From the sequence record DRR378314_2131: a stretch of DNA of 53,565 nucleotides; one strand, given 5' to 3'. A program made the translations under genes and the position numbers. The notes below the pieces were generated by a model. That model was not told the origin of the DNA. It did no database searches and saw only the letters and a program-made list of their open reading frames with translations. This document shows, in pieces, positions 11,107-27,805 of the stretch. The stretch's first letter is position 1. Every line of letters starts with the position of its first letter.

Positions 11107-11129
11107 GGGCATGCTGCGTGCAAGGGGAG

Positions 11130-12206: not shown

Positions 12207-12257
12207 GATCTCCTCCCTGGAGAGTTTTTCGCGTTGATTGCGGAGAGGTAAACTCCT

Positions 12258-12286
12258 ATTTAATGCGTACTGCAATTAAATGCAGT
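12258..12286. promoter_or_regulatory. Candidate ROK operator upstream of the fructoside operon
   Basis: Two overlapping dyads about 50-80 nt upstream of the first gene: ATTTAATGC..GCAATTAAAT and ACTGCA-N6-TGCAGT. Confidence 0.35.
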
Positions 12287-13131: not shown

Positions 13132-13366
13132 AGGCTGGTCCAAATTCAATTCGCCAAGACGGTCGCTTCTCTCAACGCGCCCGTAAATGATCAGGCATAT
13201 TTTTTGATCGCCGCAGTTTGATGGCCTCCGGAATTACCAACAGGTGCAGCCTGCCCTGCCTCCTAATGTTCCTGTATTGGGGGACGAGTTCGGCTAGGGG
13301 CATGATCGTATCAAAAAAATGCTTACCTTCGCTGCGCGCTGCATGAACCGTTAAAACGCGGACCTT

Positions 13367-13573
13367 GCCGACATTGGATTTTGGCACTTCGCTGACGCAG
13401 TAACTTCTTGCGGTTGCGGCACGACTGTTGCTGTGGCGTGGAAAATGTCTCCATTCCGGTCATTCGAGGGTACTGATATCGGCCGGATCGAAACCGTACT
13501 TTCGCCGCTGTAGTCCCGAATCAACAGTGACGGTATAGGCCAGACTTTGGGTTTTCGATCTTCGCTGACGCAG
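13367..13573 (+). repeat. Imperfect direct repeat in the intergenic region
   Basis: CTTCGCTGACGCAG occurs exactly at 13387-13400 and 13560-13573. Each copy is preceded by a similar ~20-mer (GCCGACATTGGATTTTGGCA vs GCCAGACTTTGGGTTTTCGAT). Confidence 0.55.
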
Positions 13574-13715
13574 CATTCTTTTGCGCGCGGATCTAACCCA
13601 ACATGGTATGTTGTCGTTGTGGTAGAATTAGTCCTGCGTCCCAACGCGAAAGATAGGCCACCGCGCGGGTATCTTACAAATTGGCCTCACCGGAAGAAGA
13701 CAAACCTTTCAAGGA

Positions 13716-14600
13716 TCAACTCGCTTTGGTGACCGTTGGAATATTCGGATCGTGGTCGCCGCCTTGCAGCCGCGCGGCCGTTGCCAGAACGAGCGCTTGC
13801 GAAATACACATGGGGGCTGCGATGGAACGTGAAAATGTCTGGCGATGCTCCGGCACAACAAAAAAAGGCTTGGCGGATTTGGCGAGAGGCGAGAGGTTGC
13901 TATCTGTGATGGCGATTATCGGGTGTCCAACTTCTTGCACCTGCTCGACAATCTTTACGACTTCGTTTGCGTAATAACGGAAAGACACCGCCACGAGAAC
14001 GTCTCCTGTCTGCATTGTCTGCGCCATATGGGTCGCCAAGCCTCCGCTCGGATCAAGCATCACACATCGCTTACCAATCATAGTCAGCATGTATCTTATG
14101 AAGTCTACCACAGGTGCCGATCGCAGTTGCCCAATCAAGAATACTGTTTCCGCTTTGCTAAGCCGGTCGGCGGCGAGCGCGAGGTCATCGCCTGAAATGT
14201 CCTCAATAAGGGACTGAAGGGACGCAATGTCTCTGACCACCAGATCGCGCAGAAAGCCCATATCGCTGGGATCGTCTCGGTTTCCGAGGTCATCCTCTAG
14301 CGCACGGACGCGTGCTTCAAATCCGGGTGCCGCAGTCTCCAGTCGCTTTTGAAACAGGACTTGCAGATCTTTGAAGCCGGTGTACCCCATCGCTTGGGCA
14401 AATCGGACGAAACTAGAAGCATGAATACCACAGCGATCAGCAATCGCATTGACAGAATGCACCGCAATTTCGTTTGGGTTCTGCGTCAAATAGAGCGCGA
14501 TGGCCTGATGAGACTTGCTCATCTTGTCGTAGCGTTCCTGCACCAGTTGAACAAAGGTTTCAAAGTCCGAGGGACCCGTTGACAAGTTTTGATCGCCCAA
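13716..14600 (-). CDS. RpiR/MurR family regulator (IolR-like)
   Basis: HTH ending VRFAQAMGYTGFKDLQ plus an SIS domain (AITDSNLSPLA). Adjacent to iol genes. Confidence 0.9.
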   Translation of the reverse strand: MGDQNLSTGPSDFETFVQLVQERYDKMSKSHQAIALYLTQNPNEIAVHSVNAIADRCGIHASSFVRFAQAMGYTGFKDLQVLFQKRLETAAPGFEARVRALEDDLGNRDDPSDMGFLRDLVVRDIASLQSLIEDISGDDLALAADRLSKAETVFLIGQLRSAPVVDFIRYMLTMIGKRCVMLDPSGGLATHMAQTMQTGDVLVAVSFRYYANEVVKIVEQVQEVGHPIIAITDSNLSPLAKSAKPFFVVPEHRQTFSRSIAAPMCISQALVLATAARLQGGDHDPNIPTVTKAS

Positions 14601-14738
14601 TCTAGGACCCTCCGAATTACCGTCGTAGCGTCGACAATGCGACCGACTGCTTCCTGGTGTGAACTTCTAACATCAGACTTTCGCAAACCTTTGCATTTTC
14701 TTAGCTCTCCTGATGGGTCTGGACAGTGCAGCGAACCG

Positions 14739-15866
14739 TCACGGGCTCACATCTATCCAAGTGCGATTGTTGGAAGACTCTTGGATCTGCTCCACCAATG
14801 ATTGAATTCGCAAGCCCGCGCGGAAATTGAAGGGCTCTGGGCCATCGCCATTGATGGCGGACATGAACCCCGCCACTTCGATGGCCTTGAGTTCGTTAAA
14901 GCCGATCTGGTGGCCAGGGGCCATGCAAAAGTGACCATATGGCGGATGGTCAAGTGCAGCTTCGATCCGACGAAAACCCTGACGCCCGGCGGGATCATCG
15001 GCAGAAAAAAAATGCAACTCATTGAATCGCTGCTGGCTGAAGGCAAGCGCACCTTTCGAGCCATAGACCTCAAAGTCGTGTTGCATCTTCCGCCCCGTGG
15101 CTATCCAGTTGCCTTCGATCGATCCTGACGCACCATTGGCAAAGCGTAGAATTGCGCGACCTACGTCATCGACGGTGCTTTCATGCGCAATGCCCTCTGA
15201 ATCGGTGCGTGCGCCATGGACTGTCACCAAATCGCCTAAGATTTCAGAGATCGGGCCAAGAAGGAACTCGGCCGTGGCCAAGGCATGGCTTCCCAGATCG
15301 GCAAGCGCCCCACCGCCTTCGGGGTCGATGCGGAACGTCGCCGTGCCTGTCGCAGAGGTCATGTAGTCTTCGGCGTGGAGACCGCGATAGCCATAAATCT
15401 CGCCAAGTTCGCCAGCGGCAATCATCTCGCGCGCCAGCCTAAGCATCGGGTTGCACAAATAGTTGAAACCCACTTGTGTTTTAACACCTGCTGCTTCGGC
15501 GGCCTCGGCCATTTCATTGGCGTCAATGACCTTTGGAGCAAGGGGTTTTTCACAGTAGACGTGTTTCCCAGCCGCAGCCGCTGCGAGCGACATCTCTTTG
15601 TGCAGGGCATTGGGTGCAGTGATCGAGACAATGTCGACCTCGGAATCGGCGATGATGTCGGTCCAATCCGCCGTGTAGTCCGAAAAGCCAAACGCGTGTG
15701 CGGCAGCTTGTGCCGCCTGTTTGTTGACATCAGCGACGGTGTGCAGTTCTGCCTCGATTGGCAAATCGAAAACCCGGGCGGCGTTTACAAAGCCAAAGGC
15801 ATGAGTTTTACCCATGAACCCGGTGCCAATGAGCCCGACCTTAAGCTTAGGCTTGTTGCGGGACAT
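14739..15866 (-). CDS. Gfo/Idh/MocA family oxidoreductase
   Basis: GLIGTGFMG, GKHVYCEKPLA and GGALADLGSH motifs. Confidence 0.92.
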   Translation of the reverse strand: MSRNKPKLKVGLIGTGFMGKTHAFGFVNAARVFDLPIEAELHTVADVNKQAAQAAAHAFGFSDYTADWTDIIADSEVDIVSITAPNALHKEMSLAAAAAGKHVYCEKPLAPKVIDANEMAEAAEAAGVKTQVGFNYLCNPMLRLAREMIAAGELGEIYGYRGLHAEDYMTSATGTATFRIDPEGGGALADLGSHALATAEFLLGPISEILGDLVTVHGARTDSEGIAHESTVDDVGRAILRFANGASGSIEGNWIATGRKMQHDFEVYGSKGALAFSQQRFNELHFFSADDPAGRQGFRRIEAALDHPPYGHFCMAPGHQIGFNELKAIEVAGFMSAINGDGPEPFNFRAGLRIQSLVEQIQESSNNRTWIDVSP

Positions 15867-16821
15867 TGATATGGTCTCTGTTCACAATCAACGTGTGGTC
15901 GATTGTTCCATTGAAGTAGTTCAGAATATTCTCGGCGGAAGAGATTGCCATACGTTCGGCTGCGTCCTGCGTAAGCCCGCCGATATGGGGGGACAGGATG
16001 ACCTGATCAAACTTCTTGAGGGCGCAATTGTCCCGCATCGGTTCAGTTGCAAACACATCAAGTCCTGCCGCACCGACTTTGCCACTTTCAAGCGCTGCGA
16101 CCAGTGCGGTCTCGTCAATCAGCCCGCCTCGGGCGGTGTTCACCAAAACGACCCCATCGCGCATCGAGGTAAATTGCTCTGTTCCGATCAACGGCTCGCC
16201 AGTATGAGGCAGACTGAAGGAAACCACGTCGGCCCAACCCAAGCCATCTTCAAGATTGGCGACGCTTGGCGCTCCGTCGTCGGGCCACCCTGCTTTTCGT
16301 AGATAGGGGTCATAGGCACGCACATTCATGCCAAACGCACCCATCATGCGGCCCGTGTGCCGACCGATGCGCCCGTAGCCCACCAGCAACAGATTCTGCC
16401 CGCGCGCATCACGGGCCTCCAGCCTATTGCGCCACTCCCATGGGCCATTGCGGACTGATGCGTCGCCCCGCAATAGACGCCTGTTGGCCGACAGGATCAA
16501 CATGGCGACATGCTCGGCCACGGTGGTTGAGTTCACATCCCCGCAAACCGCCAGGGCGATGCCGCGCTTATTCAATGCTTCTACATCGACAGCGTCATAG
16601 CCCACGCCATGGCGTGACATGATTTTGACCTTCGGACCAAGGGCGACCGTAGCCTCGCTAACCGGCTGTGTGCGCAAAAGTACCGCATCGGCATCGGCGA
16701 TCTTGGCTGCGAGGCTTTGTTCCGAGGTTTCGTCAATATAGGTGACTGTGATGCCCTTGGCCCCATCCAAACGGGCGCGGCCAGAGGGATGCAAGGGGCC
16801 TGCGACAACGACATGAGGCAT
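15847..16821 (-). CDS. D-isomer-specific 2-hydroxyacid dehydrogenase (SerA-like)
   Basis: RHGVGYDAVD, GYGRIG, VNTARGG, GLDVFATEP and SPHIGG motifs. Confidence 0.9.
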   Translation of the reverse strand: MPHVVVAGPLHPSGRARLDGAKGITVTYIDETSEQSLAAKIADADAVLLRTQPVSEATVALGPKVKIMSRHGVGYDAVDVEALNKRGIALAVCGDVNSTTVAEHVAMLILSANRRLLRGDASVRNGPWEWRNRLEARDARGQNLLLVGYGRIGRHTGRMMGAFGMNVRAYDPYLRKAGWPDDGAPSVANLEDGLGWADVVSFSLPHTGEPLIGTEQFTSMRDGVVLVNTARGGLIDETALVAALESGKVGAAGLDVFATEPMRDNCALKKFDQVILSPHIGGLTQDAAERMAISSAENILNYFNGTIDHTLIVNRDHINVPQQA

Positions 16822-17630
16822 CAATAGCCACCTTTCGTCGTCGCGGCGATTTCGCCGCCGGTGAGATCACGGAAGCGTTTCACGCTGGCCGCAGCCGCGC
16901 CGGCCAACAGGCGGCTATCACCTGAAACTGTGGTCAGGCTATAGCCCCATTCGATCGCGCGGACCGCATATTCCGGTGTGCCGCAATGGAGGCAAGCCTT
17001 GATGCCCGCATCCTTACAAACATTCGCGATGTGCTGGATCAGTTCGATCATCTCGGGCTCTTCGCGGTCGAAACCGGGCGGCAAGCGGCCCTCCTGGGTG
17101 CCCAGAGTCAGATCGGCCGGCCCCACATAAATCCCATCAAGTCCCGGCGTTGCGGCGATTGCCTCGACATTTGCTACACCCTCGGCGGTTTCAATCATGG
17201 CGAGTGCCACGACCTCGTCATTCATCGCAGGACCATAACCTGGCATGGCAATACCCGCGCGTGTTGGCCCGAAGCTGCGCTGACCGTGGGGGGGGTAGCG
17301 TATGTAGCTGACAAATTCCGCGGCTTGCACGGCCGTGTTGATCATCGGGCAGATGATGTTCATTGCCCCTGCATCCAGAGCTTTCATGATGATCGCCGGA
17401 TCAAGCCAGGGAACACGCGCGCCGATGCTTACACCGCTTGCCCGCATCGCCTGGGCCATGGGCAGAAACGCGGAGTAATCCAACGCCCCATGCTGAATAT
17501 CAACCGAGATCGCATCATAGCCTTGCGCGGCCATGATCTCGGCGGTGAACGGGTTGCCGATGGAGCACCAACCGTGGAGCACCGGTTTCCCCGCAGCCCA
17601 CATCTTTTTGACTTTGTTTAGTCCGCTCAT
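16821..17630 (-). CDS. HpcH/HpaI family class II pyruvate aldolase
   Basis: VDIQHG, ALDAGA, YPPHGQRSFG, MIETAEG and YVGPADL motifs. Confidence 0.9.
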   Translation of the reverse strand: MSGLNKVKKMWAAGKPVLHGWCSIGNPFTAEIMAAQGYDAISVDIQHGALDYSAFLPMAQAMRASGVSIGARVPWLDPAIIMKALDAGAMNIICPMINTAVQAAEFVSYIRYPPHGQRSFGPTRAGIAMPGYGPAMNDEVVALAMIETAEGVANVEAIAATPGLDGIYVGPADLTLGTQEGRLPPGFDREEPEMIELIQHIANVCKDAGIKACLHCGTPEYAVRAIEWGYSLTTVSGDSRLLAGAAAASVKRFRDLTGGEIAATTKGGY

Positions 17631-17639
17631 CGTCTCACC

Positions 17640-19070
17640 TCACAACACGATCTGGGCGAGTTTGATGTCGAGGTAGTCCGCGATGCCTTCTAAGCCGCCT
17701 TCGCGCCCCATGCCTGAAAAGTTTGTGCCCCCAAATGGGGCCTCTGACGCGGCCAGCGCAAAAGAATTGATCCCCACCATGCCCGATTTCAACGTTGCAA
17801 CTGCGCGTCGCGCGCGGTCTGGGTCGGAGGTGAAAGCGTAGGCTGACAGGCCCATGGTTGAGTTGTTCGCCCGCGTCAGTACTTCGTCTTCATCCTTGAA
17901 GGTGGTAATGGCAGCCACCGGACCGAAATTCTCTTCGTCGAAGACCCTCATGGAATCTGTCACGTTGGTCAGCACCGTAGGCACATAGAAATGCCCTTCG
18001 TTGAAACCAGCCGCGCGCTTGCCCCCAAGGGCCAGTGTTGCGCCCTCGGCCACGGCCGCTTGCACGATCGCATCGATGGTTTCGAGGCTGTGATCATTGA
18101 TAAGCGGGCCCATCCCCACATCAGGATCAAGCCCGTTGCCCACTTTGATCTTGGACGCTCGTTCGACAAACCCATCGACAAATGCGTCGTGCAAACTTTC
18201 GTGGACAAAGAACCGGTCCGGCGTCACGCAGACCTGGCCGCAGTTGGCGTATTTGGTTGGAACGCTCACATCCAGCGCGGCTGCCAGATCGGCGTCATCA
18301 TAGACGATCAGCGGTGCGTTCCCGCCTAGCTCCATCGAAACCTTCTTTACGGTGTCAGCGGCATCGCGGATCATTTGCTGGCCCACACGGGTTGACCCGG
18401 TCAAGGATACTTTGCGCACTCGTTTATCCGCCATGATTGGCCCATATGTGCTGGCGGTGGAGCCTGTGACGAGATTCACTGCCCCATCAGGAAGGCCACC
18501 AGCGCGCAGGCAATCAACAAGAACCATCGCCACGCCCGGCGTTTGCGAGGAAGGACGCAACACAACAGAACAACCTGCCGCCAGCGCGGGGGCCAATTTG
18601 CGTGCGGGAAGTGCCGCCGGGAAGTTCCATGCGGTAAACGCACCAACGATTCCCACCGCTTCGCAACTGATATCGAACCGTCCGCCTGGTACGCGACTTT
18701 CGACAGTACGGCCGTAAATGCGCCGCGCTTCCTCGGCGTACCAACGGAACTGATCGCAGGCGAGCGTCCATTCGCGACCCGCCTGAGCAATCGGCTTGCC
18801 CGTCTCGGTAGAGATCATCGTCGTCGCCTCATCGGTGCGCCGGATCATCTCATCCGCCACCTTGTGCAGCGCATCAGCGCGGCCAAACCCGCCCATTTCA
18901 CGCAGCGCTCCGAGCGCGCTTTCCGCCGCATCAATGGCCGCTGCGGTATCATCTCGGGTTGCCGCCGCAATCTTACCCAGCGATTTTTCCGTCACCGGAG
19001 AGAACACCTCGGTTGTCTCTCCCCCTTTGACCCATGCGCCAGATAGAAAAAGTCCAAAAGTATCGTACAT
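17640..19070 (-). CDS. NAD(P)-dependent aldehyde dehydrogenase (SSADH-like)
   Basis: AWNFP, LTGSTRVG, MELGGNAP, catalytic GQVC and EENFGP motifs. Confidence 0.92.
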   Translation of the reverse strand: MYDTFGLFLSGAWVKGGETTEVFSPVTEKSLGKIAAATRDDTAAAIDAAESALGALREMGGFGRADALHKVADEMIRRTDEATTMISTETGKPIAQAGREWTLACDQFRWYAEEARRIYGRTVESRVPGGRFDISCEAVGIVGAFTAWNFPAALPARKLAPALAAGCSVVLRPSSQTPGVAMVLVDCLRAGGLPDGAVNLVTGSTASTYGPIMADKRVRKVSLTGSTRVGQQMIRDAADTVKKVSMELGGNAPLIVYDDADLAAALDVSVPTKYANCGQVCVTPDRFFVHESLHDAFVDGFVERASKIKVGNGLDPDVGMGPLINDHSLETIDAIVQAAVAEGATLALGGKRAAGFNEGHFYVPTVLTNVTDSMRVFDEENFGPVAAITTFKDEDEVLTRANNSTMGLSAYAFTSDPDRARRAVATLKSGMVGINSFALAASEAPFGGTNFSGMGREGGLEGIADYLDIKLAQIVL

Positions 19071-19073
19071 AGC

Positions 19074-20081
19074 TCACTCCAACTCGCTGGTTTTCACGAC
19101 GCGGCCTTCAGCCACGGACATAAAACAGGCATCTGCAAGCAGGAGTGCCAAACGGCCATCTTCAAATCCTACGGGGACTGGCGCGCCTGTTTCGATCGCA
19201 TCGACGAAATGGTCGATCTCGATGTTAAAGGCCGCGCCGTAGCGTTCGATGAAGAAATGCTGCAATGCTGCCGACACGTTCGTCTCGGTTGCAGAAAACT
19301 TCCTCATGTTGTGATTATGGTGATTGTCAGAGATCACCATGCCCTTGGATCCTAAGAGCTCGACCCGCTGGTCATAGCCATAGACGGCTTCACGCGAGTT
19401 GGTGATGATAGCCTGCTTACCGCTGGCGGTTTTCATCGTCACGACAACGGTGTCGAAGTCGTCACACTCATCCATCAGTGCCGGGTCCACCAGTCGCGAT
19501 CCGGTGGCAGAGACTTCGGTGACCTCTTCACCCAACATGAAGCGGGCCAGGTCAAGATCATGGATCGTCATGTCGCGGAAGATGCCGCCGGACGTTTTGA
19601 TATAATCATCGGGTGCCATGCCCGGATCGCGGGAGGTGATGGTGACCTGATGCAGCTCGCCAATCTCACCTTCCGCCCGCGCCTTTTGACAGGCCGCATG
19701 GCCGGGATCGAAGCGGCGCACAAAGCCCAGCATGATCGGCACGTCCTTGCCAGCAATTCGTTCCTTAAGGGCGTTTACACGCGGCAAGGACAAATCGATT
19801 GGCTTTTCACATAGAACCGGTTTGCCCGCGTTCACACAGGCCTCGAGCAGATCCACATGGGTCGAAGTTGGCGTTGCGATAAGTACTGCATCGACGTCTT
19901 CGGCAACTATAGCTTCGTCGGCCGAAGCGAATTTGGTAACGCCATGCTTTTGAGAAATTTCCTCAGCAGAGGGGTCGTGCACATCAAAAACACCGGCCAA
20001 ATCTGCTCGCGGATGTGATGCAATGTTGTTGGCGTGCATGCGGCCAATACGTCCGCAGCCGAGCACAGAAATCCTTGGCAA
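19074..20081 (-). CDS. iolG: Inositol 2-dehydrogenase
   Basis: GCGRIG, CEKPIDL, RRFDP, ITSRDP, GGIFRDMTIHD and YGYDQRVE motifs. TTG start at 20081 with a GGGAGA RBS. Confidence 0.88.
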   Translation of the reverse strand: MPRISVLGCGRIGRMHANNIASHPRADLAGVFDVHDPSAEEISQKHGVTKFASADEAIVAEDVDAVLIATPTSTHVDLLEACVNAGKPVLCEKPIDLSLPRVNALKERIAGKDVPIMLGFVRRFDPGHAACQKARAEGEIGELHQVTITSRDPGMAPDDYIKTSGGIFRDMTIHDLDLARFMLGEEVTEVSATGSRLVDPALMDECDDFDTVVVTMKTASGKQAIITNSREAVYGYDQRVELLGSKGMVISDNHHNHNMRKFSATETNVSAALQHFFIERYGAAFNIEIDHFVDAIETGAPVPVGFEDGRLALLLADACFMSVAEGRVVKTSELE

Positions 20082-20100
20082 GTTCGTTCTCCCATTTTTC

Positions 20101-20122
20101 TCTTGCAATGATTGTTGCAAGA
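20101..20122. promoter_or_regulatory. Perfect palindromic operator in the iolG/iolD divergent promoter
   Basis: TCTTGCAA-N6-TTGCAAGA. A second dyad, TATTGA-N3-TCAATA, lies at 20125-20139. Confidence 0.7.
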
Positions 20123-20187
20123 TGTATTGAATGTCAATAATCAATTCAGTGGGTGCTGAACGCAAGCATTCAGGGAGGAAAAGCGAG

Positions 20188-22050
20188 ATGACCGCCAGCA
20201 CAGTACGCCTTACGATGGCGCAGGCTTGTGTCCGGTACTTATGTGCCCAATACACAGAGATTGATGGCGAACGTGTGCCGCTGTTTGCTGGTGTTTTTGG
20301 CATCTTTGGCCATGGCAATGTCACCTGTTTTGCGGAAGCGCTGGAGCGTGTTCAGGATCAGCTGCCGACCTGGCGTGGCCAGAATGAACAATCCATGGCG
20401 CTTGCGGCCATCGCGTTTGCGAAAGCCAAAAAGCGGCGCCAGATCATGATCGCCACCACTTCTGTGGGCCCGGGCGCGACGAATATGGTGACCGCTGCAG
20501 GCGTGGCTCATGCCAACCGATTGCCGGTGCTGTTGATCTCGGGAGACACCTACGTCAACCGTTTGCCGGACCCCGTGCTGCAACAGGTTGAACATTTTGG
20601 CGATCCCTCGAAGACCGTGAATGACAGCTTTAAGGCTGTCTCGCGCTATTGGGACCGGATTGTGCACCCGGCGCAGATCATCCAATCTCTGCCACAGGCG
20701 ATCGCGACGATGCTTGACCCAGCCGATTGCGGCCCCGCTTTCATCGGACTCCCGCAAGATACTCAAGAGCGGGCTTATGACTATCCGGTCGAATTTTTTG
20801 AGGAGAAAACCTGGACGATCCCGCGTCCGCGCCCCTCAGTTGATCAGGTAACTGCGGCGGTCGAGGTGTTGAAGACAGCCAAGAAACCTCTGATCATTTC
20901 TGGCGGAGGTGTTCGTTATTCCGGCGCGGAAGAAGCCGTTGCTGCATTCGCCAAGAGACGTGGCATTCCCATGGCCGAAACCATCGCCGGAAAAGGCGCG
21001 GTTTGCCATGATGACCCCGCATATGTTGGCCCGATGGGTATCGAGGGCACCGAAGCAGCCCGCCAATTGTCGGAATCGGCTGACGTGGTTCTGGCTATTG
21101 GCACAAGGATGCAGGATTTCACCACCGGGTCATGGACGACCTTTCCGAAGGATGCGACGTTCATAAACGTGAACGCCGCACGGTTCGACTCGCTCAAGCA
21201 CCGCGCCGTGCCGTTAGTGGGTGATGCATTGGAATCGATTATCGAGATCGACGCAGCGCTTGGTGATTGGGCCGCCCCTGCAGAGCGGATGGCGCAGGCC
21301 CAGGCCTGGTACAAAGACTGGAACGATCTTCTGGACGAGGGGCAGGCACCCACAAACGCCGAAATTCCAAGCTATGCGCAGGTGATCGGTATCGTGAACA
21401 AGATGGCGAAGCCAGAGGACGTGATGGTCACCGCCGCGGGTGGCTTGCCCGGTGAAACGATCAAGAACTGGCGTTGTAAATCGCCTCACAGTTTTGACTG
21501 TGAGTTTGGTTATTCTTGTATGGGTTATGAAGTTGCAGGGGGCTGGGGCCATGCCATGGCGCTTGAGGGCACTCCGGGCACACCAATCGTTATGGTGGGC
21601 GATGGGTCCTACATGATGATGAACTCGGACATTCATTCGTCGGTCATCGCGGGACACAAGATGATTGTCGTGGTCTGCGACAATGGCGGCTTTGGTGTCA
21701 TCAACCGTTTGCAGACGGGGATGGGCGGCGCAGGGTTCAACAATCTTCTCAAAGACAGCCGCGTCGTTAATCCGGCCAATGTACGCCATGTGGATTTCGC
21801 CAAACATGCAGAAGCAATGGGTGCCGAAGCGCGCCATGTGGAAAGCTTGGCCGATCTCGAAGATGCTCTTGCCTGGGCTCAAACCACGGATCGCACAACG
21901 GTGATCAGCATCGAGTCGGATGCCTATACTTGGACCCCGGGCGGGGCCGATTGGTACGTGGGTGTTCCGGAAGTGTCACCCCGCGAAAGTGTCAATGAGG
22001 CCCGCAAAGGCCAGGAAGAATTCCGCAAGAGACAGCGGATTGGAGTCTGA
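20188..22050 (+). CDS. iolD: 3D-(3,5/4)-trihydroxycyclohexane-1,2-dione acylhydrolase (ThDP)
   Basis: TVRLTMAQA, GIFGHGNV, GQNEQSMA, PDPVLQQ and GDGSYMM motifs. Confidence 0.95.
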   Translation: MTASTVRLTMAQACVRYLCAQYTEIDGERVPLFAGVFGIFGHGNVTCFAEALERVQDQLPTWRGQNEQSMALAAIAFAKAKKRRQIMIATTSVGPGATNMVTAAGVAHANRLPVLLISGDTYVNRLPDPVLQQVEHFGDPSKTVNDSFKAVSRYWDRIVHPAQIIQSLPQAIATMLDPADCGPAFIGLPQDTQERAYDYPVEFFEEKTWTIPRPRPSVDQVTAAVEVLKTAKKPLIISGGGVRYSGAEEAVAAFAKRRGIPMAETIAGKGAVCHDDPAYVGPMGIEGTEAARQLSESADVVLAIGTRMQDFTTGSWTTFPKDATFINVNAARFDSLKHRAVPLVGDALESIIEIDAALGDWAAPAERMAQAQAWYKDWNDLLDEGQAPTNAEIPSYAQVIGIVNKMAKPEDVMVTAAGGLPGETIKNWRCKSPHSFDCEFGYSCMGYEVAGGWGHAMALEGTPGTPIVMVGDGSYMMMNSDIHSSVIAGHKMIVVVCDNGGFGVINRLQTGMGGAGFNNLLKDSRVVNPANVRHVDFAKHAEAMGAEARHVESLADLEDALAWAQTTDRTTVISIESDAYTWTPGGADWYVGVPEVSPRESVNEARKGQEEFRKRQRIGV

Positions 22051-22056
22051 GTCGGA

Positions 22057-22953
22057 ATGCTGAAAGCCAAATTAGGTATAGCCCCCATCGCCTGGTGGAA
22101 CGACGATCTTGAGGAACTCTCGGACGACGTGAGTTTGGACGAATGTTTGCGCCAGGCTGCCGAAGCTGGCCTGACGGGTATGGAAACCGGCCGGCGCTTT
22201 CCCATGAATATGGATGAGCTGGGGCCGGTTCTGGACAAACACGGGATGTCGGTCTGCGGCGGATGGTTTTCGGGTCTTTTGCTTGATGGCGATATTGAGG
22301 TTGAAAAGGACCGAATCGCCGAACAGCACGCCTTCTTCAAAGCCGCGGGCGCGCCTTGCATCGTCTATGGTGAGACCGCGCGCTCGGTTCAGGGTGAGCG
22401 TAACACGCCACTGGCGCAAAAACCAAAACTGACTGAGGCTGAGATGGACGCCTATGGTCGCAAGGTTTCGGATTTTGCCGATTGGTGCGCCAAGGAAGGC
22501 ATGCCGCTAAGCTATCATCACCATATGGCGGCAGCGGTGGAAACCGAGGCGGAACTGGACATGTTCATGAAGCATTCCTCAGTGCCGCTATTGTTTGACG
22601 CCGGACATATGGCCTTTGCAGGCGGGGACAATTTCCGCGTCATTGAAAACCATCACTCCCGGATCAGTCACGTTCACGCAAAAGACATCCGCAAGGATGT
22701 TGTGGACGGGCTGAACCGAGAGCGTGAGAGTTTTCTCGATGCGGTGATCAAGGGTGCGTTTTCCGTGCCGGGTGACGGCTCGCTTGATTTCGAAGCGATT
22801 GCCAAGGCGCTTGCCGCGAAGGGCTATGAAGGTTGGTTCGTGATTGAAGCCGAACAAGACCCGGTCGCTAATCCGCCGCTTGAAATGGCCAAGAAAGGCC
22901 GAGCTGAATTATCCCGTGTCATGAAGGCGGCCGGGTACAAGGTTGTCGCATGA
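22057..22953 (+). CDS. iolE: myo-inosose-2 dehydratase
   Basis: GIAPIAWWNDD, YHHHM, DAGH, HVHAKD and EAEQDP motifs. Confidence 0.95.
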   Translation: MLKAKLGIAPIAWWNDDLEELSDDVSLDECLRQAAEAGLTGMETGRRFPMNMDELGPVLDKHGMSVCGGWFSGLLLDGDIEVEKDRIAEQHAFFKAAGAPCIVYGETARSVQGERNTPLAQKPKLTEAEMDAYGRKVSDFADWCAKEGMPLSYHHHMAAAVETEAELDMFMKHSSVPLLFDAGHMAFAGGDNFRVIENHHSRISHVHAKDIRKDVVDGLNRERESFLDAVIKGAFSVPGDGSLDFEAIAKALAAKGYEGWFVIEAEQDPVANPPLEMAKKGRAELSRVMKAAGYKVVA

Positions 22954-23765
22954 ATCGGATAGATGGAAAAATCGCCCTGATCACAGGCGGAACGCAGGGA
23001 TTGGGTGCGGCCATCGCACGCGTCTTTGCGCAGGCTGGCGCTGCGGGCGTCGCAATTGTGGGTCGCGGCGCGGCCAAAGGTGAGGCTAAGGCCGCAGAAA
23101 TCAGCGTGGCCACCGGTGTGCCAGTGGAAATGATTGCCGCAGATCTTGGGAATGTCGAGGACGTGCAACGCATTGTCCCGGCAGCCGTAGCGCGCTTTGG
23201 CACTATAGATATCTTGGTGAATGCGGCAGGATTGACGGATCGCGGGAACCTTCTAAACACGACACCTGAGCTTTTCGATCAGATGTTCGCGGTCAATGCT
23301 CGCGCGCCATTCTTTCTGATGCAGGACACTGTCAAACAGCTTGAAAAGGATGGCAAAGGCGGACGGATCGTGAATATCGGCTCAACCTCTTCGCATGCCG
23401 GTCAGCCATTCATAGCGCCCTATTGCGCGTCCAAAGCGGCGCTTTCGACGCTGACGCGCAGCTCAGGCTACGCGTTGATGCGCAACGGTATTCACGTAAA
23501 CCAACTCGATATTGGCTGGATGGCCTCCGACCACGAGCGCCAGCTTCAACTTGAAGAATCCGGTGATCCTGACTGGGAGGAAAAGGCGAATGCTGGCCTG
23601 CCCTTCGGTCGATTGCTCGACCCGCAAGAAGTAGCCCGGGCTGTTTTGTTTCTGGCATCGGACGACGCCGGGATGATGACCGGCGCGGTCATTCACTACG
23701 ATCAATCTGTCTGGGGTGGCTATGATGCACAAGCCCCAGGACCAGCAGAAAGGCTGAAGGAGTAA
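22950..23765 (+). CDS. Short-chain dehydrogenase/reductase
   Basis: TGGTQGLG, VNAAG and YCASK motifs. ATGA overlap with iolE. Confidence 0.92.
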   Translation: MNRIDGKIALITGGTQGLGAAIARVFAQAGAAGVAIVGRGAAKGEAKAAEISVATGVPVEMIAADLGNVEDVQRIVPAAVARFGTIDILVNAAGLTDRGNLLNTTPELFDQMFAVNARAPFFLMQDTVKQLEKDGKGGRIVNIGSTSSHAGQPFIAPYCASKAALSTLTRSSGYALMRNGIHVNQLDIGWMASDHERQLQLEESGDPDWEEKANAGLPFGRLLDPQEVARAVLFLASDDAGMMTGAVIHYDQSVWGGYDAQAPGPAERLKE

Positions 23766-23830
23766 TCAACCGAATTTCCGCCGTTCCTGATACGGATCAC
23801 AAGGCAACCGATGACCGTTTGCCAAAATCA

Positions 23831-23874
23831 GTTTCCCTGCCTGACGATCTTGGAGAGTTGGCAGACAGGGAAAC
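23831..23874 (+). other. Long imperfect RNA hairpin upstream of the SBP gene
   Basis: GTTTCCCTG and CAGGGAAAC form a 9-bp outer stem, with further internal pairing (CTG/CAG, TCT/AGA). Confidence 0.55.
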
Positions 23875-23924
23875 CTAGTATGTCGTGCCGCCAGTGGCGG
23901 TAACAAACAGAGGAGGTATACGAC

Positions 23925-24884
23925 ATGACTTTGAAGAAAACCATCGTGGGAGCAGTTGTCGCTTCGATGACGGCAGGCGCTGCCATGGCGGCAGACATTG
24001 CCCTCGTTATTGGCTCTAATCAGGACTCGTTCTGGAATGTCGTCAAGAAGGGTGCCGAAGATGCCGCCATGGCCATTGAGGCACGTGGCGGTTCGGTCAA
24101 TATCCTGCAGACCAACAATTATGACAACTATGGCGCGGACTTGGCTACGCTGATCGAGCAAGCGACAGCTCAGGGCGTAGACGGAATTGCAACCGTTCTG
24201 CCGGAACCCAACGCACAGCTCCCGGCAATCAAAGCTGCTCAGGAAGCCGGCATCGTTGTGACGTTGTTGAACGGCGGCGGTGACTCCCTCGAAGAGTCCG
24301 GTGCTCTAAACTACTTTGGCTCTGATGAATACGTCGCTGGCGTTGCTGGAGGCAAATATTTGGCTGAGCGTGGCTCCACGCACATTCTGTGCCACATCCA
24401 GATCCCTGGAACCGTGAACCTCGAAGCGCGCTGCAAAGGTGTTGAAGACGGTGCGAGTGAATCTGGTGCAAAAGTTACAATTTTGCGTCTTCCAACAACG
24501 TTGGACGGCGATATGGCGGGGACGTCAGCAGCTATCGAATCTGAGCTGAATGGCGATCCAAGCATCGACGGCGTCATTACACTTGCGTCGTGGTCCGCCA
24601 GTGCCGCATTCGCCGCGATCGAACAACTGGGCAAGGTGGAATCTGTTCAGTTGGGTCAGTTCGACCTGAGCCCCGCAACGCTGGACCGCATCAAGGCCGG
24701 GACCCAGGCAATGGCTATTGACCAGACGCCTTATTATCAGGGCTTTCTGTCGGTCTCTACGCTAGCTGCCAACATTGACTTCGGCACCAAGATTGCCACT
24801 GAACCGGTATTGACCGGCCCGGCGATCGTTGACTCATCGAATATCGACGCGACGTTCGCGGGTGTGGAAGCTGGCGCACGCTAA
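23925..24884 (+). CDS. Sugar/inositol ABC transporter substrate-binding protein
   Basis: Signal peptide, DSFWNVVKKGA and IDQTPYYQG motifs, strong GAGGAGG RBS. Confidence 0.9.
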   Translation: MTLKKTIVGAVVASMTAGAAMAADIALVIGSNQDSFWNVVKKGAEDAAMAIEARGGSVNILQTNNYDNYGADLATLIEQATAQGVDGIATVLPEPNAQLPAIKAAQEAGIVVTLLNGGGDSLEESGALNYFGSDEYVAGVAGGKYLAERGSTHILCHIQIPGTVNLEARCKGVEDGASESGAKVTILRLPTTLDGDMAGTSAAIESELNGDPSIDGVITLASWSASAAFAAIEQLGKVESVQLGQFDLSPATLDRIKAGTQAMAIDQTPYYQGFLSVSTLAANIDFGTKIATEPVLTGPAIVDSSNIDATFAGVEAGAR

Positions 24885-24993
24885 GGCCATATGACAAAAT
24901 CCGGTCGCCTCAATCGGAGCGGCCGGACTCCCGTTCAGGCACTCGATGCGTTCGAGCGATCCGTCGGGTGAAGGGAAGAATTGGAGAGACGCT

Positions 24994-26052
24994 TTGTCAA
25001 AAGTAAATACGAAATATGCGGCTGCAGAAAGCTCTGTTTCCGGCGAGGCCAAAAGCACGTTTTCTTTTGGCGAGCTCATGAGAAGCCCGGCCATGGGTGC
25101 CCTTATCGGGATGCTAGTTGTTTTTGTAATCTTCGCAATGTTCGGCTATCACCGGAACTTTCTTTCATTTGCTGGCTTTGCCAATTGGATGAATTTCGCC
25201 AGCACGGTGGGGATCATTGCAATCCCAGTTGCATTCCTGATGATCTCGGGTGAATTGGACATATCAACCGGCGCCGTCATGCCTGCATCAGCGATGATGT
25301 TGGGGATTTCCGTAAATCACTATGACTTCCCGATGTGGCTGGGCATGGTTTCCACCCTGGCCATGGCCGCTGGAGTCGGGCTCATCAACGGGCTGTTGGT
25401 GACACGCACCCAAGTGCCGTCTTTCATTGTTACGCTGGCCACGCTCTTCGCTGTAGGGGGGCTGACACTGGCATTGTCCGACCTCCTCATAAACAACACC
25501 AACGTCTCTCTTAACTCACCGGATTGGGCGAAAGCAGTATTTGGCACACGCTATTTTGGCTTCCGCACATCGGTTTTCTGGTGGTTGGGTCTGATCGTCA
25601 TATTCTGGTTTTTTCTGCACAAGTCACCTTGGGGTAACTGGGTGTTTGCCATGGGCGGGGACCCCGAAAGTGCTCACAATGCCGGTATCCCGGTTAGCAA
25701 AATGAAGATTGGGCTGTTCATTCTCTGTGCGGTGTGCACGTCTTTGGCGGGAATGCTTCAGGTGATCCAGTTCAACTCCGCCCAATCTGCAACCTTCTTC
25801 AACATGATCTTCTTTACGATTATTGCGTGTGTTGTTGGTGGAGTGCTGCTCAACGGTGGTTTTGGCTCGGTCGTTGGAGTGGTCTTCGGGACCATGACTC
25901 TCGGTATCGTACAGCAGGGCATCAACTATACCGAGATTGACCGAAACTATTCGTTGTTAATCATCGGTGTGATGCTGCTAATCGCAGTTCTCATGAACGG
26001 AACCTTCCAAAGGCTGGCGACCAATTGGTCAACTGGCAAGAAAGAGGATTAA
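24994..26052 (+). CDS. Sugar ABC transporter permease
   Basis: [20 protein letters not shown] and AMGGDPESA motifs. TTG at 24994 follows GGAGAG; ATG at 24946 is an alternative start. Confidence 0.9.
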
Positions 26053-26054
26053 GC

Positions 26055-26849
26055 ATGTCTGAAGCAAACACCGTTTTGGAACTTCGCAAAGTCGACAAGT
26101 CCTTTGGGCCAATCGACGTATTGCATGAGATAAGCCTGAAGGTGAATGCTGGCGAAGTGCTTTGCCTTCTCGGCGACAACGGCGCCGGCAAGTCAACACT
26201 GATCAAGACGATGGCCGGGGTGCATGCGCCAACGCGCGGTGAAATCCTCATGGATGGCACCCCCACGTCTTTCACCAGCCCGCGTGACGCGCAGGAGCGC
26301 GGGATCGCCACTGTGCACCAGTTCGGCGGGACTTACCCACTGATGTCAATCGGAAAAAACTTCTTCATTGGGATGGAACCCACCAAGGGGCTCGGGCCGT
26401 TCAAAGTATACGATCGTGAAAAGGCGAACCGTATTGCGGTGGAAGAAGTACAGAAGATGGGCATTACCCGGATCACTGACGGTGATCGTTTTGTGGGCGG
26501 ACTTTCGGGTGGTGAACGCCAGTCACTGGCCATCGCCCGCGCAGTCTATTTCGGGGCACGGGTTCTGATTCTGGATGAGCCGACCGCAGCGCTCGGCGTC
26601 AAACAGGCGGCGCATGTCCTGCGCATCGTCAACGAAGCCAAGCGGCGCGGTCTGGCGGTGATCTTCATCACCCATCAAGTAATGCATGCCCTTTCGGTAG
26701 GCGACCATTTCGCGGTGCTTATTCGGGGCGCCATTGCCGCAGACTTTAAGAGGGGCGAAAAGTCTCGGGAAGAAATCGCGGACCTGATGGCCGGTGGAGA
26801 GAGCATGGCAGATCTTGAAGCCGCCATCGGCGCACCTCAGGCGAGTTGA
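26055..26849 (+). CDS. Sugar ABC transporter ATP-binding protein
   Basis: [16 protein letters not shown] and [10 protein letters not shown] motifs. Confidence 0.92.
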
Positions 26850-26862
26850 GGTTGGTATCAAA

Positions 26863-26985
26863 ATGACAGAACGCGTTGCCATGATCGAATTCGTGATTTT
26901 GGGCGGCGATCATGAAAAGATGGCCGCCCAAAATATATCAGGTGTGTGGCCATCACTGGAAAAGACCGTCAAGTCGTTCGCATAG
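26863..26985 (+). pseudogene. Probable decayed N-terminus of a Gfo/Idh/MocA dehydrogenase
   Basis: GAGG RBS then MTERVAMIEFVILGGDHEKMAAQNISGV, resembling a degenerate 'RIAVIGxGxMGxDH' start. Ends at the IS6 IR. Confidence 0.35.
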
Positions 26986-27805
26986 GGCTTTGTTGCAAAG
27001 TTTTGAGCTTACCGAATTGTCTTGGCGATCAGAACGAAGTTAAGCTGCCAGTTCAGCGAATTGTTTAAACGGACAGAGTCCGGGCGCGAATTGGCCCTTT
27101 CGGATCATGTGCGACACCTCGATTCCAGCAAGTGTTGCTGCAGCTGAGGCAAAGCTCTTGAAACCGAGCATCGGGCGAGTTCGCCTTTTGATGAAACGAT
27201 GGTCTTGTTCTACGATGTTGTTCAGATATTTCCGCCTGACCATCTCGATCGGGATGGGGCAGCCAAAACCCGCAAGCATCTTGTTGATTGCCTTGATGCC
27301 AGCGGTGTTGGCACCGATTTTGTCGATAACGATCTTTCGCGGCAGACCGTTGACCTCCATCATTCGGGCGAAAAACCTTGTGGCGGCCGGCTTGTTTCGA
27401 CGCTCGAACAGCATGAAATCAAGAGTTTTGCCGTGTTTGTCTACGGCACGATAAAGATAAACCCATGTGCCTTTTACTTTGATGTACGTTTCATCCATTC
27501 TCCAGGAGCGGTCGCATGGTCCCTTGCGACGACGCGCTGCATCAGCAATTGCGCCAGAATACCTTGTCACCCAGCGGTTCAGTGTGGTGTGATCCACCGT
27601 GACGCCTCGCTCGAGCATGATTTCTTCCAGATCGCGATAGGACACGCCGAAACGGACATAGAAGAAGACCGCAAACAGGATCACGTCTTTCGGATATTGT
27701 GCGCCTTTGAAAGAGATCATGAACCGACTCTCGAGTTGAAAATAACGATAGCCATTCACTCGCAGCACCGAAGAGCGTCAACAGCTAAAAGTTTGCAACA
27801 GATCC
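26986..27805 (-). mobile_element. Complete IS6-family insertion sequence, 820 bp (copy C)
   Basis: IRs GGCTTTGTTGCAAA (26986-26999) and TTTGCAACAGATCC (27792-27805). The flanks TCGCATAG and AGGAACGC are not a target duplication. Confidence 0.93.
27040..27720 (-). CDS. IS6 family DDE transposase
   Basis: MISFKGAQYPKD start, SYRDLEE, MDETY, IVIDK and VEQDH motifs. 226 aa, apparently intact. Confidence 0.95.
   Translation of the reverse strand: MISFKGAQYPKDVILFAVFFYVRFGVSYRDLEEIMLERGVTVDHTTLNRWVTRYSGAIADAARRRKGPCDRSWRMDETYIKVKGTWVYLYRAVDKHGKTLDFMLFERRNKPAATRFFARMMEVNGLPRKIVIDKIGANTAGIKAINKMLAGFGCPIPIEMVRRKYLNNIVEQDHRFIKRRTRPMLGFKSFASAAATLAGIEVSHMIRKGQFAPGLCPFKQFAELAA

Follow-up and report, generated by a model that had tools for sequence, protein, structure and literature searches.

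In the myo-inositol degradation pathway of B. subtilis the canonical steps run IolG-E-D-B-C-J-A, and the canonical proteobacterial genes comprise iolCDEB with idhA and iolA, IolC being fused to a DUF2090 aldolase, as set out in PMC9007349. The locus described here lies in a window (the whole stretch of DNA analyzed, 53.5 kb long) and occupies an accessory island that resembles the canonical system in its IolG, IolE and IolD, which pass the NCBIfam equivalog cut-offs, in its RpiR-type regulator and CUT2 ABC uptake genes, and in the expected common product, malonate semialdehyde. Unlike the canonical system, the island lacks IolB, IolC, IolJ/DUF2090 and IolA, and adds an aldehyde dehydrogenase (ALDH), an HpcH aldolase, a 2-hydroxyacid dehydrogenase (2HADH), a second Gfo/Idh dehydrogenase and an SDR; its IolD also belongs to a separate clade.

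The added enzymes recall several other routes. GarL of E. coli, in D-glucarate/galactarate degradation, splits 5-keto-4-deoxyglucarate into pyruvate plus tartronate semialdehyde, and GarR and GarK follow. The island likewise has an HpcH-family aldolase that would act, as proposed here, on a C6 2-oxo-dicarboxylate, but it has no dehydratase for a 3-deoxy 2-oxo acid and carries the 2HADH instead, so that the nucleophile half would be hydroxypyruvate; its aldolase also misses the GarL cut-off (138 vs 393 bits), although GarL is its best-scoring NCBIfam model. In the lower homoprotocatechuate pathway HpaI/HpcH yields pyruvate and succinate semialdehyde, followed by SSADH. The pairing of an HpcH-type aldolase with an SSADH-like ALDH recurs in the island, where the predicted malonate semialdehyde is one carbon shorter; the substrate, however, would come from a cyclitol and not from an aromatic ring, and the HpaI cut-off is missed as well (133 vs 369 bits). 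The Weimberg and Dahms pentose routes and the sulfo-Entner-Doudoroff route (with SDR, aldolase and GabD-like ALDH) are non-phosphorylative oxidative sugar routes that share with our proposal the logic of C1 oxidation, 2-oxo acid, aldolase and aldehyde oxidation, with no kinase acting on the C6/C5 skeleton; they make the 2-oxo group by a dehydratase, whereas the island offers no candidate for this step but a dehydrogenase. An alternative inositol route in Thermotoga maritima runs through IolM, IolN and IolO. It is similar to the one proposed here in giving inosose a fate that avoids IolB and IolC, but it uses different enzymes and intermediates, without IolE or IolD, and the IolO model scores only 22 bits on the island IolE.

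All ORFs of the module are intact and lie where the first-pass annotation had placed them. The features of the island and its border are:

13252..26985, no strand: accessory island of ~13.7 kb carrying the whole module, delimited by comparison with genome G001
13716..14600, minus: RpiR/MurR-family regulator (Pfam HTH_6 and SIS), probably an IolR-type repressor of the module
14739..15866, minus: Gfo/Idh/MocA dehydrogenase ("Gfo1"; family and PDB scores)
15847..16824, minus: D-isomer-specific 2-hydroxyacid dehydrogenase, 2HADH (Pfam 2-Hacid_dh and 2-Hacid_dh_C)
16821..17630, minus: HpcH/HpaI-family class II (metal-dependent) 2-oxoacid aldolase (PF03328, 103 bits)
17640..19070, minus: NAD(P)-dependent aldehyde dehydrogenase, SSADH-like, ALDH (PF00171, 501 bits)
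19074..~20081, minus: iolG, inositol 2-dehydrogenase (TIGR04380)
20131..22050, plus: iolD, ThDP-dependent ring-opening hydrolase of the HpcH-linked lineage (TIGR04377)
22057..22953, plus: iolE, inosose dehydratase (TIGR04379)
22950..23765, plus: SDR oxidoreductase (PRK06198 subfamily)
23925-24884, plus: ABC binding protein, CUT2-type (Pfam)
24946-26052, plus: ABC permease (Pfam)
26025-26849, plus: single-domain ABC ATPase (Pfam)
26986..27805, minus: IS6-family insertion sequence, island border (NF033587, 252 bits)

The plus-strand genes iolD-iolE-SDR-ABC diverge from the minus-strand operon Gfo1-2HADH-HpcH-ALDH-iolG. By the ORF calls, the latter genes are as tightly coupled as the first-pass annotation had claimed, with gaps of no more than 9 nt or overlaps (an overlap of 20 nt, one of 4 nt that shrinks to 1 nt with the ATG at the second codon as start, then gaps of 9 and 3 nt), and the SDR gene is translationally coupled to iolE. 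The iolG ORF extends to 20324, the TIGR04380 alignment beginning only at residue 84. The stated absence of iolB, iolC, iolJ and iolA (mmsA) was confirmed for the whole window by tblastn (E<=1e-5) with MmsA, IolB, both the short and the fused form of IolC, and an IolJ-like aldolase as queries: the only matches were paralogous, namely the ALDH itself and a class II FBA at 8476-9678 (a TIGR01521 equivalog).

IolG (402 bits vs cut-off 355), IolE (386 vs 290) and IolD (811 vs 715) pass their equivalog cut-offs, and would oxidize inositol to inosose, dehydrate the inosose, and open the ring, giving 5-deoxy-D-glucuronate or one of its stereoisomers, respectively. The ALDH is SSADH-like, below cut-off (464 vs 646 bits, TIGR01780), and only 27% identical to true MmsA. 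SSADHs act on aldehydes with a distal carboxylate, and we propose that this enzyme oxidizes C1 of 5-deoxyglucuronate to give the diacid 5-deoxyglucarate, the alternative being oxidation of malonate semialdehyde. The C1 oxidation would replace isomerization by IolB, phosphorylation by IolC and phosphate-dependent cleavage (IolJ or DUF2090). The 2HADH, which scores 235 bits with the PGDH model (cut-off 454) and in the PDB matches PGDH (181 bits) and glyoxylate reductases (~150 bits), could then oxidize the C2 hydroxyl of 5-deoxyglucarate to the 2-oxo acid, or alternatively reduce hydroxypyruvate. The resulting 2-oxo-4-hydroxy C6 diacid is the proposed substrate of HpcH, whose cleavage between C3 and C4 would release hydroxypyruvate and malonate semialdehyde; housekeeping enzymes would take over the products, MmsA leading to acetyl-CoA and the glycerate route consuming hydroxypyruvate. 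The best PDB match of HpcH is a hydroxyketoacid aldolase (6r62, 168 bits over residues 5-249), ahead of GarL (1dxe, 123 bits). This nearest solved structure, a distant relative and not an orthologue, is SwHKA from Sphingomonas wittichii, crystallized with hydroxypyruvate bound as a substrate, according to PMC10099721, in which we saw no natural substrate named. The metal-site Ser116 of SwHKA aligns with a Ser in the island HpcH, while Phe210, which contacts C3 of hydroxypyruvate, aligns with His215, so that hydroxypyruvate is only a putative nucleophile here.

Among the remaining enzymes, Gfo1 falls below the cut-off of the NCBIfam levoglucosan dehydrogenase (267 vs 650 bits) and matches PDB entries 4fb5 (275 bits) and 5ya8 (253 bits), the latter entitled [quoted passage not shown]; by these similarities it likely acts as a dehydrogenase of an inositol isomer or of a lactol at C1. 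The SDR passes the PRK06198 subfamily cut-off (383 vs 240 bits), and its PDB match, 4nim (318 bits), has an uninformative deposited name. The chemistry suggested in the first-pass annotation agrees with the enzyme families (an SSADH-like ALDH, a PGDH-like 2HADH, and an HpcH whose nearest structure binds hydroxypyruvate), and our literature search found no published description of an oxidative lower branch of the inositol pathway. We tentatively favor, with a confidence slightly under even, the reading of the module as a self-contained second cyclitol (inositol) set with such a branch.

Comparison of genomes shows the island as one representative of a second inositol-degradation gene set that is widespread. 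The genome collection contains 392 relatives of HpcH, and orthologues with 67-87% identity and the same arrangement are found in no fewer than 80 alphaproteobacterial and a few betaproteobacterial genomes. Among the 63 HpcH loci with enough flanking sequence to count partner genes, HpcH is accompanied most tightly by 2HADH (60 loci), then by ALDH and iolD (55 each), SDR (54), iolE (52), iolG (50) and Gfo1 (49); 39 of the 63 loci have 2HADH, ALDH, iolG, iolD, iolE and SDR together, and an orthologue of the RpiR/MurR regulator adjoins the cluster in 48. The association of ALDH, HpcH and 2HADH with inositol operons holds across many genomes, and since dozens of them keep the same gene order, the cluster is more than a chance assembly. 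ALDH is missing from 8 of the 63 clusters (2HADH from 3), which makes its placement at the first step uncertain; in such clusters Gfo1 or the SDR may oxidize the lactol. Two further observations weigh against the reading we favor: scanning of 83 stretches revealed cluster-linked glycerate kinase in one and MmsA in two, and a streamlined 1.41-Mb genome keeps only iolG-HpcH and iolE-SDR, alongside a kinase route. In a Paracoccus-type variant (21/63 loci) two genes come after the SDR, one isomerase-like and the other again of the Gfo/Idh family, and on the two annotated Paracoccus plasmids iolC and iolB come next, in the same operon as iolD-iolE-SDR, so the oxidative genes do not simply substitute for iolB and iolC.

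This bears on a somewhat unlikely alternative, in which the module feeds the ordinary kinase route and genes elsewhere in the genome provide IolB, IolC and an aldolase, ALDH, HpcH and 2HADH being accessory enzymes for products or side-products (malonate semialdehyde for ALDH, say, and glyoxylate or hydroxypyruvate for 2HADH) or forming an IolB-dependent oxidative shunt from 2-deoxy-5-keto-gluconate. Besides the Paracoccus operons, it would account for the clusters without ALDH, as expected if MmsA can replace that enzyme, and for the fact that IolB, IolC or both are retained in 77 of the 80 genomes with the cluster (in one of them only as a partial IolB, truncated where the contig stops). True IolB is found in 66 of the 80, and nine more have a divergent IolB' with a short IolC, adjoining in most of the nine, although G039 has them on two different small contigs; in the two annotated loci (G001 and G106) this pair is flanked by a class II aldolase. 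In G106 the kinase-isomerase-aldolase operon is headed by a 43% identical SSADH-like ALDH, just as iolA holds the first position in the Bacillus iol operon, which supports the kinase-feeding alternative. The first-pass annotation had implied that the host lacks iolB and iolC. This is not supported by G001, the nearest genome in the collection, from which we infer the content of the source organism: G001 has a separate canonical iol cluster with iolG, iolD, iolB, iolC and an IolJ-like aldolase.

On the other side, neither IolB nor IolC was found in the cluster-bearing genomes G229 (99% complete, full cluster at L128), G172 (94% complete) and G005 (a MAG with a single 2.3-Mb chromosome and all eight genes intact at L044), nor in the MAGs G008 and G041. 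The gene set hence does occur in genomes without iolB and iolC, as had been suggested, but as an exception: only 3 of the 80 carriers lack both, all of them MAGs with no completeness figure. MmsA is present in all genomes tested (G005, G008, G041, G056, and also G001), in G041 directly beside the cluster. Further arguments against the kinase-feeding alternative are that the ALDH falls outside the MmsA type, and that an HpcH-type aldolase requires a 2-oxo acid, a class of compound to which no kinase-route intermediate is known to belong. Finally, the island duplicates iolG, iolE and iolD and not iolB or iolC, which argues for a unit independent of host IolB/IolC; G003 and G004, with two IolD each, show the same pattern. 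Because a canonical iol set accompanies the module in most genomes that carry it, the oxidative branch would run parallel to the kinase route; that role, or the handling of an isomer or derivative poorly accepted by IolB/IolC, is more likely than replacement. Of the non-phosphorylative lower pathway originally suggested, the conserved oxidative genes and fitting families stand, while the supposed absence of iolB/iolC from the host and their loss through IS6 are not supported.

Because the cluster is in most cases an additional iol set, another idea from the first-pass annotation becomes more credible, namely that it serves a different cyclitol (another stereoisomer, or an inositol that is methylated, C-methylated or deoxy), whose ring-opened product IolB/IolC would refuse, hence the oxidative enzymes. 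The mechanism overlaps with the one we favor and only the substrate differs. Two or more IolD copies are present in 38 of 49 cluster-bearing genomes. The HpcH-linked IolDs form a deep separate clade (support 0.88), within which the window IolD is 66-86% identical to those of other HpcH-linked clusters, as against 45-53% to canonical and IolJ-type IolDs; this distinct lineage also speaks for the reading we favor. The island binding protein is unlike that of the G001 canonical cluster (167 vs 335 bits with the rhizopine-SBP model, the former below the cut-off of 420), and each cluster has two to four Gfo/Idh-type dehydrogenases. We nevertheless consider a different cyclitol unlikely: IolG, IolE and IolD all pass myo-inositol equivalog cut-offs, the module is the only iol set in the single-IolD genomes G002, G005, G041 and G229, the transporter differs from cluster to cluster, and the loci compared share no conserved demethylase, aminotransferase or other enzyme that would strip a group from the ring.

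The borders of the island are defined by contig C22 of G001, which matches the window at 3339-13251 (97%) and 27000-46999 (99%) but not between, where ~0.8 kb of unrelated DNA takes the place of the absent island. The right border is the IS6 element, with 19-nt imperfect inverted repeats (26986-27004 and 27787-27805) and a transposase at 27040-27768. It abuts the cluster, and relatives of the source genome carry numerous IS6 copies; in run X4 its depth is 49.6 vs ~7, which indicates many copies. Such a setting might suggest a non-working, decaying remnant of a canonical cluster that lost iolB and iolC through IS6 activity (a loss that the first-pass annotation had considered), yet this is very improbable and already contradicted by the intact ORFs, including an ATPase beside the IS that is full length when set against its 265-aa counterpart in L041. 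In the nearest relatives, L041-L043, the order is likewise free of iolB/C, with the SDR-binding protein-permease-ATPase layout, at 69-92% protein identity (69-86% for the three ABC genes) and without this IS.

The island is also nearly unchanged in other samples: near-identical copies were found in two other studies, a metagenome contig of 13,792 nt spans 13297-27088 with 10 differences, and in a second organism the DNA to the left of 13358 differs from the window. It is quite possible, if short of probable, that the island is a horizontally mobile unit with its regulator, ABC uptake, upper pathway and own lower pathway. Fragments of most cluster genes are present in contigs from two metatranscriptome libraries of one study, a weak hint of transcription.

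The gene calls of the first-pass annotation were borne out by the ORF list and by family scans, in which a tightly packed minus-strand operon (iolG, ALDH, HpcH, 2HADH and a Gfo/Idh gene) diverges from iolD, iolE and an SDR gene.

Genes of the inositol cluster (coordinates, strand, assignment)
13716-14600, RpiR-type regulator, after the Gfo/Idh gene of the minus-strand operon
14739-15866, minus, Gfo/Idh oxidoreductase (Gfo1), from the ORF list and family scans
15847-16824, minus, 2-hydroxyacid dehydrogenase (2HADH), PGDH-like (235 bits, cut-off 454)
16821-17630, minus, HpcH/HpaI-family aldolase (HpcH), PF03328 (103 bits, cut-off 25)
17640-19070, minus, ALDH, SSADH-like (TIGR01780, 464 bits, cut-off 646)
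19074-about 20081, minus, iolG, inositol 2-dehydrogenase (TIGR04380, 402 bits, cut-off 355)
20131-22050, plus, iolD, ring-opening hydrolase (TIGR04377, 811 bits, cut-off 715)
22057-22953, plus, iolE, inosose dehydratase (TIGR04379, 386 bits, cut-off 290)
22950-23765, plus, SDR, divergent from the minus-strand operon with iolD and iolE
23925-26849, plus, ABC binding protein, permease and ATPase, after a 159-nt gap following SDR

IolG, IolD and IolE each score above their NCBIfam equivalog cut-off, as expected of the canonical iol upper pathway. The absence of iolB, iolC, iolJ and mmsA from the window also holds: tblastn against the whole window gave no match to the isomerase IolB at E<=1e-5 and none to either form of the kinase IolC, and the queries, which also included an IolJ-like aldolase, otherwise returned only paralogue cross-hits. 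The sole class II aldolase of the window (8476-9678) is a fructose-bisphosphate aldolase equivalog (TIGR01521). IolA/MmsA, the CoA-acylating malonate semialdehyde dehydrogenase, was not found in the window by tblastn either, the cluster ALDH being 27% identical to true MmsA.

Judging by family scores, the ALDH, the aldolase and 2HADH are members of their superfamilies and of no named equivalog. HpcH, in which the PF03328 family domain is full length, fails the GarL/HpaI equivalog cut-offs (138, 134 and 133 bits against 393, 407 and 369, respectively); its best solved relative is SwHKA (6R62, 168 bits, aligned over residues 5-249), a hydroxyketoacid aldolase crystallised with hydroxypyruvate, followed by GarL (1dxe, 123 bits). 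Ser116 of SwHKA aligns with a Ser in the HpcH of the window, and the aromatic contact to C3 of hydroxypyruvate (SwHKA Phe210) is not kept there, His215 being aligned at this position. The ALDH stays below the succinate-semialdehyde dehydrogenase cut-offs (TIGR01780, 464 bits against 646; GabD, 416 against 828), as does 2HADH below those of PGDH (235 against 454), glyoxylate reductase (186 against 455) and GhrB (156 against 492), with PGDHs (181 bits) and glyoxylate reductases as its solved relatives. Among solved structures Gfo1 comes closest to an unnamed oxidoreductase (275 bits), followed by the scyllo-inositol/L-glucose dehydrogenase 5ya8; at 253 bits Gfo1 is not an orthologue of the latter, and we rejected the LgdA identity for it and likewise for Gfo2 of Paracoccus, whose best match is 3v5n. 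The sole solved relative of the SDR comes from structural genomics and is uninformative as to function, and the sole structure matching the ABC binding protein (4ru1) has a title that names no ligand.

By the known chemistry of the two enzyme families, a 2-hydroxyacid dehydrogenase needs a 2-hydroxy acid, which 5-deoxyglucuronate offers only after oxidation of C1, and the substrate of an HpcH-type aldolase must be a 2-oxo-4-hydroxy acid; we know of no intermediate of the kinase route (canonical IolB, IolC, then IolJ or a DUF2090 aldolase) that qualifies as the latter. The simplest use of the conserved genes would be a three-step oxidative scheme, in which 5-deoxyglucuronate would be converted to 5-deoxyglucarate, this to 2-oxo-3,4-dihydroxyadipate, and the 2-oxo acid would undergo aldol cleavage to putative hydroxypyruvate and malonate semialdehyde. 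We infer this scheme in its entirety, and tentatively judge it the most likely.

To survey the distribution of the cluster, one genome per species was scanned with the HpcH protein, which yielded 392 relatives; the best 80 of these (67-87% identity), mostly from Rhodobacterales and Hyphomicrobiales with a few from Burkholderiales, were fetched with 10-kb flanks. After 17 loci with short flanks had been dropped, 63 remained with at least 8 kb upstream and at least 3.5 kb downstream. A neighbour was counted if it reached the identity threshold set for its gene (45-60%) and covered at least 50% of the query, and since HpcH was the query, clusters lacking it are outside the view of these counts. 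2HADH lies beside HpcH in 60 of the 63 loci, ALDH and iolD in 55 each, SDR in 54, iolE in 52, iolG in 50, Gfo1 in 49 and the RpiR regulator in 48; 2HADH, ALDH, iolG, iolD, iolE and SDR are all present in 39/63. The same gene order occurs on two annotated Paracoccus plasmids, and records from Brucella/Ochrobactrum also name HpcH orthologues. Two layouts can be distinguished: the ABC system comes after SDR in the window and in L041-L043, its nearest relatives (69-92% protein identity), and in the Paracoccus type (21/63 loci) SDR precedes an isomerase-like gene and then another Gfo/Idh gene, beyond which the two annotated plasmids carry a fused iolC, a small ORF and iolB. Of 83 stretches scanned for downstream enzymes (80 genome loci, two plasmid loci and the window), two have MmsA beside the cluster and one has a DUF4147 glycerate kinase there, so that neither enzyme is consistently linked to it. 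A third Gfo/Idh gene, absent from the window, follows Gfo1 in L041-L043, L045, L046, L048, L050, L053, L054 and ten further loci; its product resembles the D-xylose 1-dehydrogenase Gfo6 (239 bits, below 350). Plasmid pFER4 of Paracoccus ferrooxidans (L040) has a pyruvate carboxylase gene (4046-7492) interposed between Gfo1 and the RpiR regulator.

Several variants deviate from these layouts. ALDH is truly missing between iolG and HpcH in L054, L055, L056, L088 and L107, and also in L047 and in genome G180; L088 lacks 2HADH as well. In Nioella the ALDH-HpcH-2HADH-Gfo1 operon is separate from iolG/E/D. The streamlined genome G106 (a single contig of 1.41 Mb, 35-36% G+C) retains only iolG-HpcH and iolE-SDR, with an ABC system (L125/L131) and with no ALDH or 2HADH at this site; its iolD is about 100 kb away, and an operon 20 kb away comprises an ALDH (43% identical), Gfo, short IolC, a divergent IolB-like protein (IolB') and a class II aldolase. 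From these variants it follows that HpcH-2HADH is the core pair. Two places are conceivable for the ALDH, an initial one in which it would turn 5-deoxyglucuronate into the diacid and a final one in which it would act on malonate semialdehyde; where it is missing, C1 may be oxidised by Gfo1 or the SDR. In the sole annotated Nioella locus (L059) the ALDH-HpcH-2HADH-Gfo1 operon is divergent from a gene at 6047-8224 for a phytase-like protein of 725 aa (PF13449).

Among the 80 genomes with fetched loci, 66 (38/50 + 28/30) have an IolB match over the family cut-off. Nine others (G006, G007, G009, G010, G011, G014, G039, G042, G047) have IolB' (130-158 bits) together with a short IolC at or over its cut-off, the two genes being adjacent in most of them and on separate small contigs in G039; one has only a fused IolC (G056), one an IolB fragment at a contig end (G063), and three have neither IolB nor IolC (G005, G008, G041). 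The last three are MAGs without a completeness figure; in G005, which consists of one 2.3-Mb chromosome, all eight genes of the cluster are intact. We also drew an even class sample of 401 genomes, thinly spread, 397 of them with a completeness of 90% or more and a contamination of 5% or less. It contains HpcH orthologues at 57% identity or more in four cases and at 51-53% in three, the other 52 matches (41-49%) being paralogues that were excluded from the counts. Among the four, G152 and G180 have both IolB and IolC, while in G229 (99% complete, with the whole cluster at L128) neither IolB (E<=1e-10) nor IolC (E<=1e-45) was found, and G172 (94% complete) likewise has neither. Thus the cluster can exist in the absence of the kinase route, though it usually does not. 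Genomes that carry the gene set and lack iolB/iolC are G229, G172, G005, G008 and G041, against 66/80 genomes with a true IolB. The same figures bear on the reading that ALDH, HpcH and 2HADH are accessory and the kinase route is supplied in trans: the frequent co-occurrence is compatible with it, the genomes without IolB and IolC are hard to accommodate, and we regard it as rather unlikely.

A class II aldolase lies beside the IolB'/short-IolC pair in G001, the nearest genome available for comparison (L121), and in G106 (L131), which points to an IolJ-type lower pathway; the set is like the one that the GapMind paper reports for Phaeobacter from fitness data (PMC9007349). The module is probably the Roseobacter-type IolJ lower pathway. 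It recurs in L121 (G001), L123 (G007) and L131 (G106), and its IolB', at 130-158 bits, falls below the cut-off of 205 and is left unnamed by NCBIfam. In G007 it adjoins its own IolD and an IolE-like gene (173 bits, below cut-off); IolD in genomes with this module scores 761-789 bits.

The iolB/iolC status of the window's organism was read by proxy from G001, which shares 56% of the window's sampled words. On another contig G001 carries a separate canonical cluster with iolG, an inositol-type binding protein, iolD (897 bits), iolB (345 bits), a class II aldolase, a divergent IolB-like gene (142 bits), a short iolC (309 bits) and Gfo/Idh; the short IolC adjoins an IolJ-like aldolase, and MmsA (621 bits) lies elsewhere in G001, on another contig. 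By this proxy the organism is not devoid of iolB and iolC, and the island in the window is therefore a second iol-like set. Likewise, at least two IolD matches were found in 38 of 49 cluster-bearing genomes (2/5 + 36/44), including Paracoccus genomes with iolC and iolB inside the cluster. The IolD of the window is 66-86% identical to HpcH-adjacent IolDs and 45-53% to IolDs elsewhere. In a midpoint-rooted maximum likelihood tree of 90 IolDs, with groups set by genomic context, the 67 HpcH-linked sequences are monophyletic (support 0.88), as are the 16 canonical ones (1.0), and the seven IolJ-type IolDs join the HpcH-linked clade (0.97). That the cluster shares genomes with canonical sets points to either a route running in parallel or another cyclitol as its substrate. 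That the cluster serves another cyclitol, a reading that overlaps with the oxidative branch, would suit the separate IolD lineage, and is to be set beside the canonical scores of IolG, IolD and IolE; we think it improbable.

The suggestion that iolB and iolC were removed by an IS6 element is unsupported because the ATPase gene beside the element is full length; moreover, L041-L043 have the same SDR-ABC layout. A decaying remnant of a canonical cluster is on these grounds most improbable.

The flanks of the island match a single contig of G001 (3339-13251 at 97%, 27000-46999 at 99%), and nothing in G001 resembles 13252-26985; unrelated DNA of about 0.8 kb occupies the island position there (contig C22, about 54406-55213, L023). 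On its right the island is bounded by an IS6-family element (26986-27805), whose 19-nt inverted repeats span 820 bp from end to end and whose DDE transposase scores 252 bits with NF033587 (cut-off 125). No IS6 inverted repeat was found at the left edge, so the island is not a simple two-IS unit and this candidate was rejected. Elements 1-733 and 26986-27805 are two different members of the IS6 family, 78-80% alike, the left one, which has an inverted-repeat match at 717-733, being truncated where the window begins; many IS6 copies lie at contig ends in G001. In public runs the island was seen as a unit on a 13,792-nt metagenome contig that spans 13297-27088 with 10 differences, and a second organism has it as pieces on its contigs, the DNA left of 13358 being different there. 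Two metatranscriptome libraries of one study contain contigs with pieces of most cluster genes, in both runs with none over 13314-14855 (the regulator) and with patchy coverage elsewhere; as contigs cannot show transcription or operon structure, they hint only weakly at expression.

The breakdown of inositol is textbook biochemistry and serves as a marker of rhizosphere, gut and marine competence. The four core genes of a large inositol genome survey are reportedly iolB, C, D and E. In the excerpted text of that survey (PMC9430895) inositol clusters are defined by four core genes and the HpcH-linked variant is unmentioned, and the excerpts of the GapMind paper give the pathway no aldolases other than IolJ and IolC-DUF2090 (PMC9007349). 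Full-text searches, whose coverage excludes subscription journals, retrieved no paper in which iol genes are connected with HpcH, with hydroxypyruvate or with an oxidative branch, nor any occurrence of 5-deoxyglucarate, 5-deoxyglucaric acid or trihydroxyadipate. It is conceivable, with somewhat greater reserve than for the three steps themselves, that many Alphaproteobacteria possess an undescribed oxidative lower inositol branch with no kinase acting on the C6 skeleton, borne on a mobile module with its own IolG/E/D lineage. If so, class II "hydroxyketoacid" aldolases, a family now known only as biocatalysts, would gain a first natural pathway role and a physiological substrate; inositol use by genomes without IolB/IolC would be explained; two routes, or two cyclitol substrate ranges, would be commonly kept by bacteria; and a short enzymatic route from inositol to C3 acids would be at hand, with no kinase step on the C6 skeleton. 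If the second module ends differently, some inositol users would be overlooked or misinterpreted by surveys and automated pathway tools.

Two further regions of the window flank the island. The stretch 8476-13131, common to G001 at 97%, encodes the class II fructose-bisphosphate aldolase (TIGR01521), a GH32 hydrolase, a sugar-binding protein and a GFA-family protein. The stretch 28819-32166 is probably an ectoine/hydroxyectoine utilisation region: it comprises a GntR regulator, a PLP enzyme resembling threo-3-hydroxyaspartate ammonia-lyase/EutB (306 bits, below 452), aspartate dehydrogenase (309 bits, above 253) and the ectoine ABC ATPase EhuA (406 bits, above 345).
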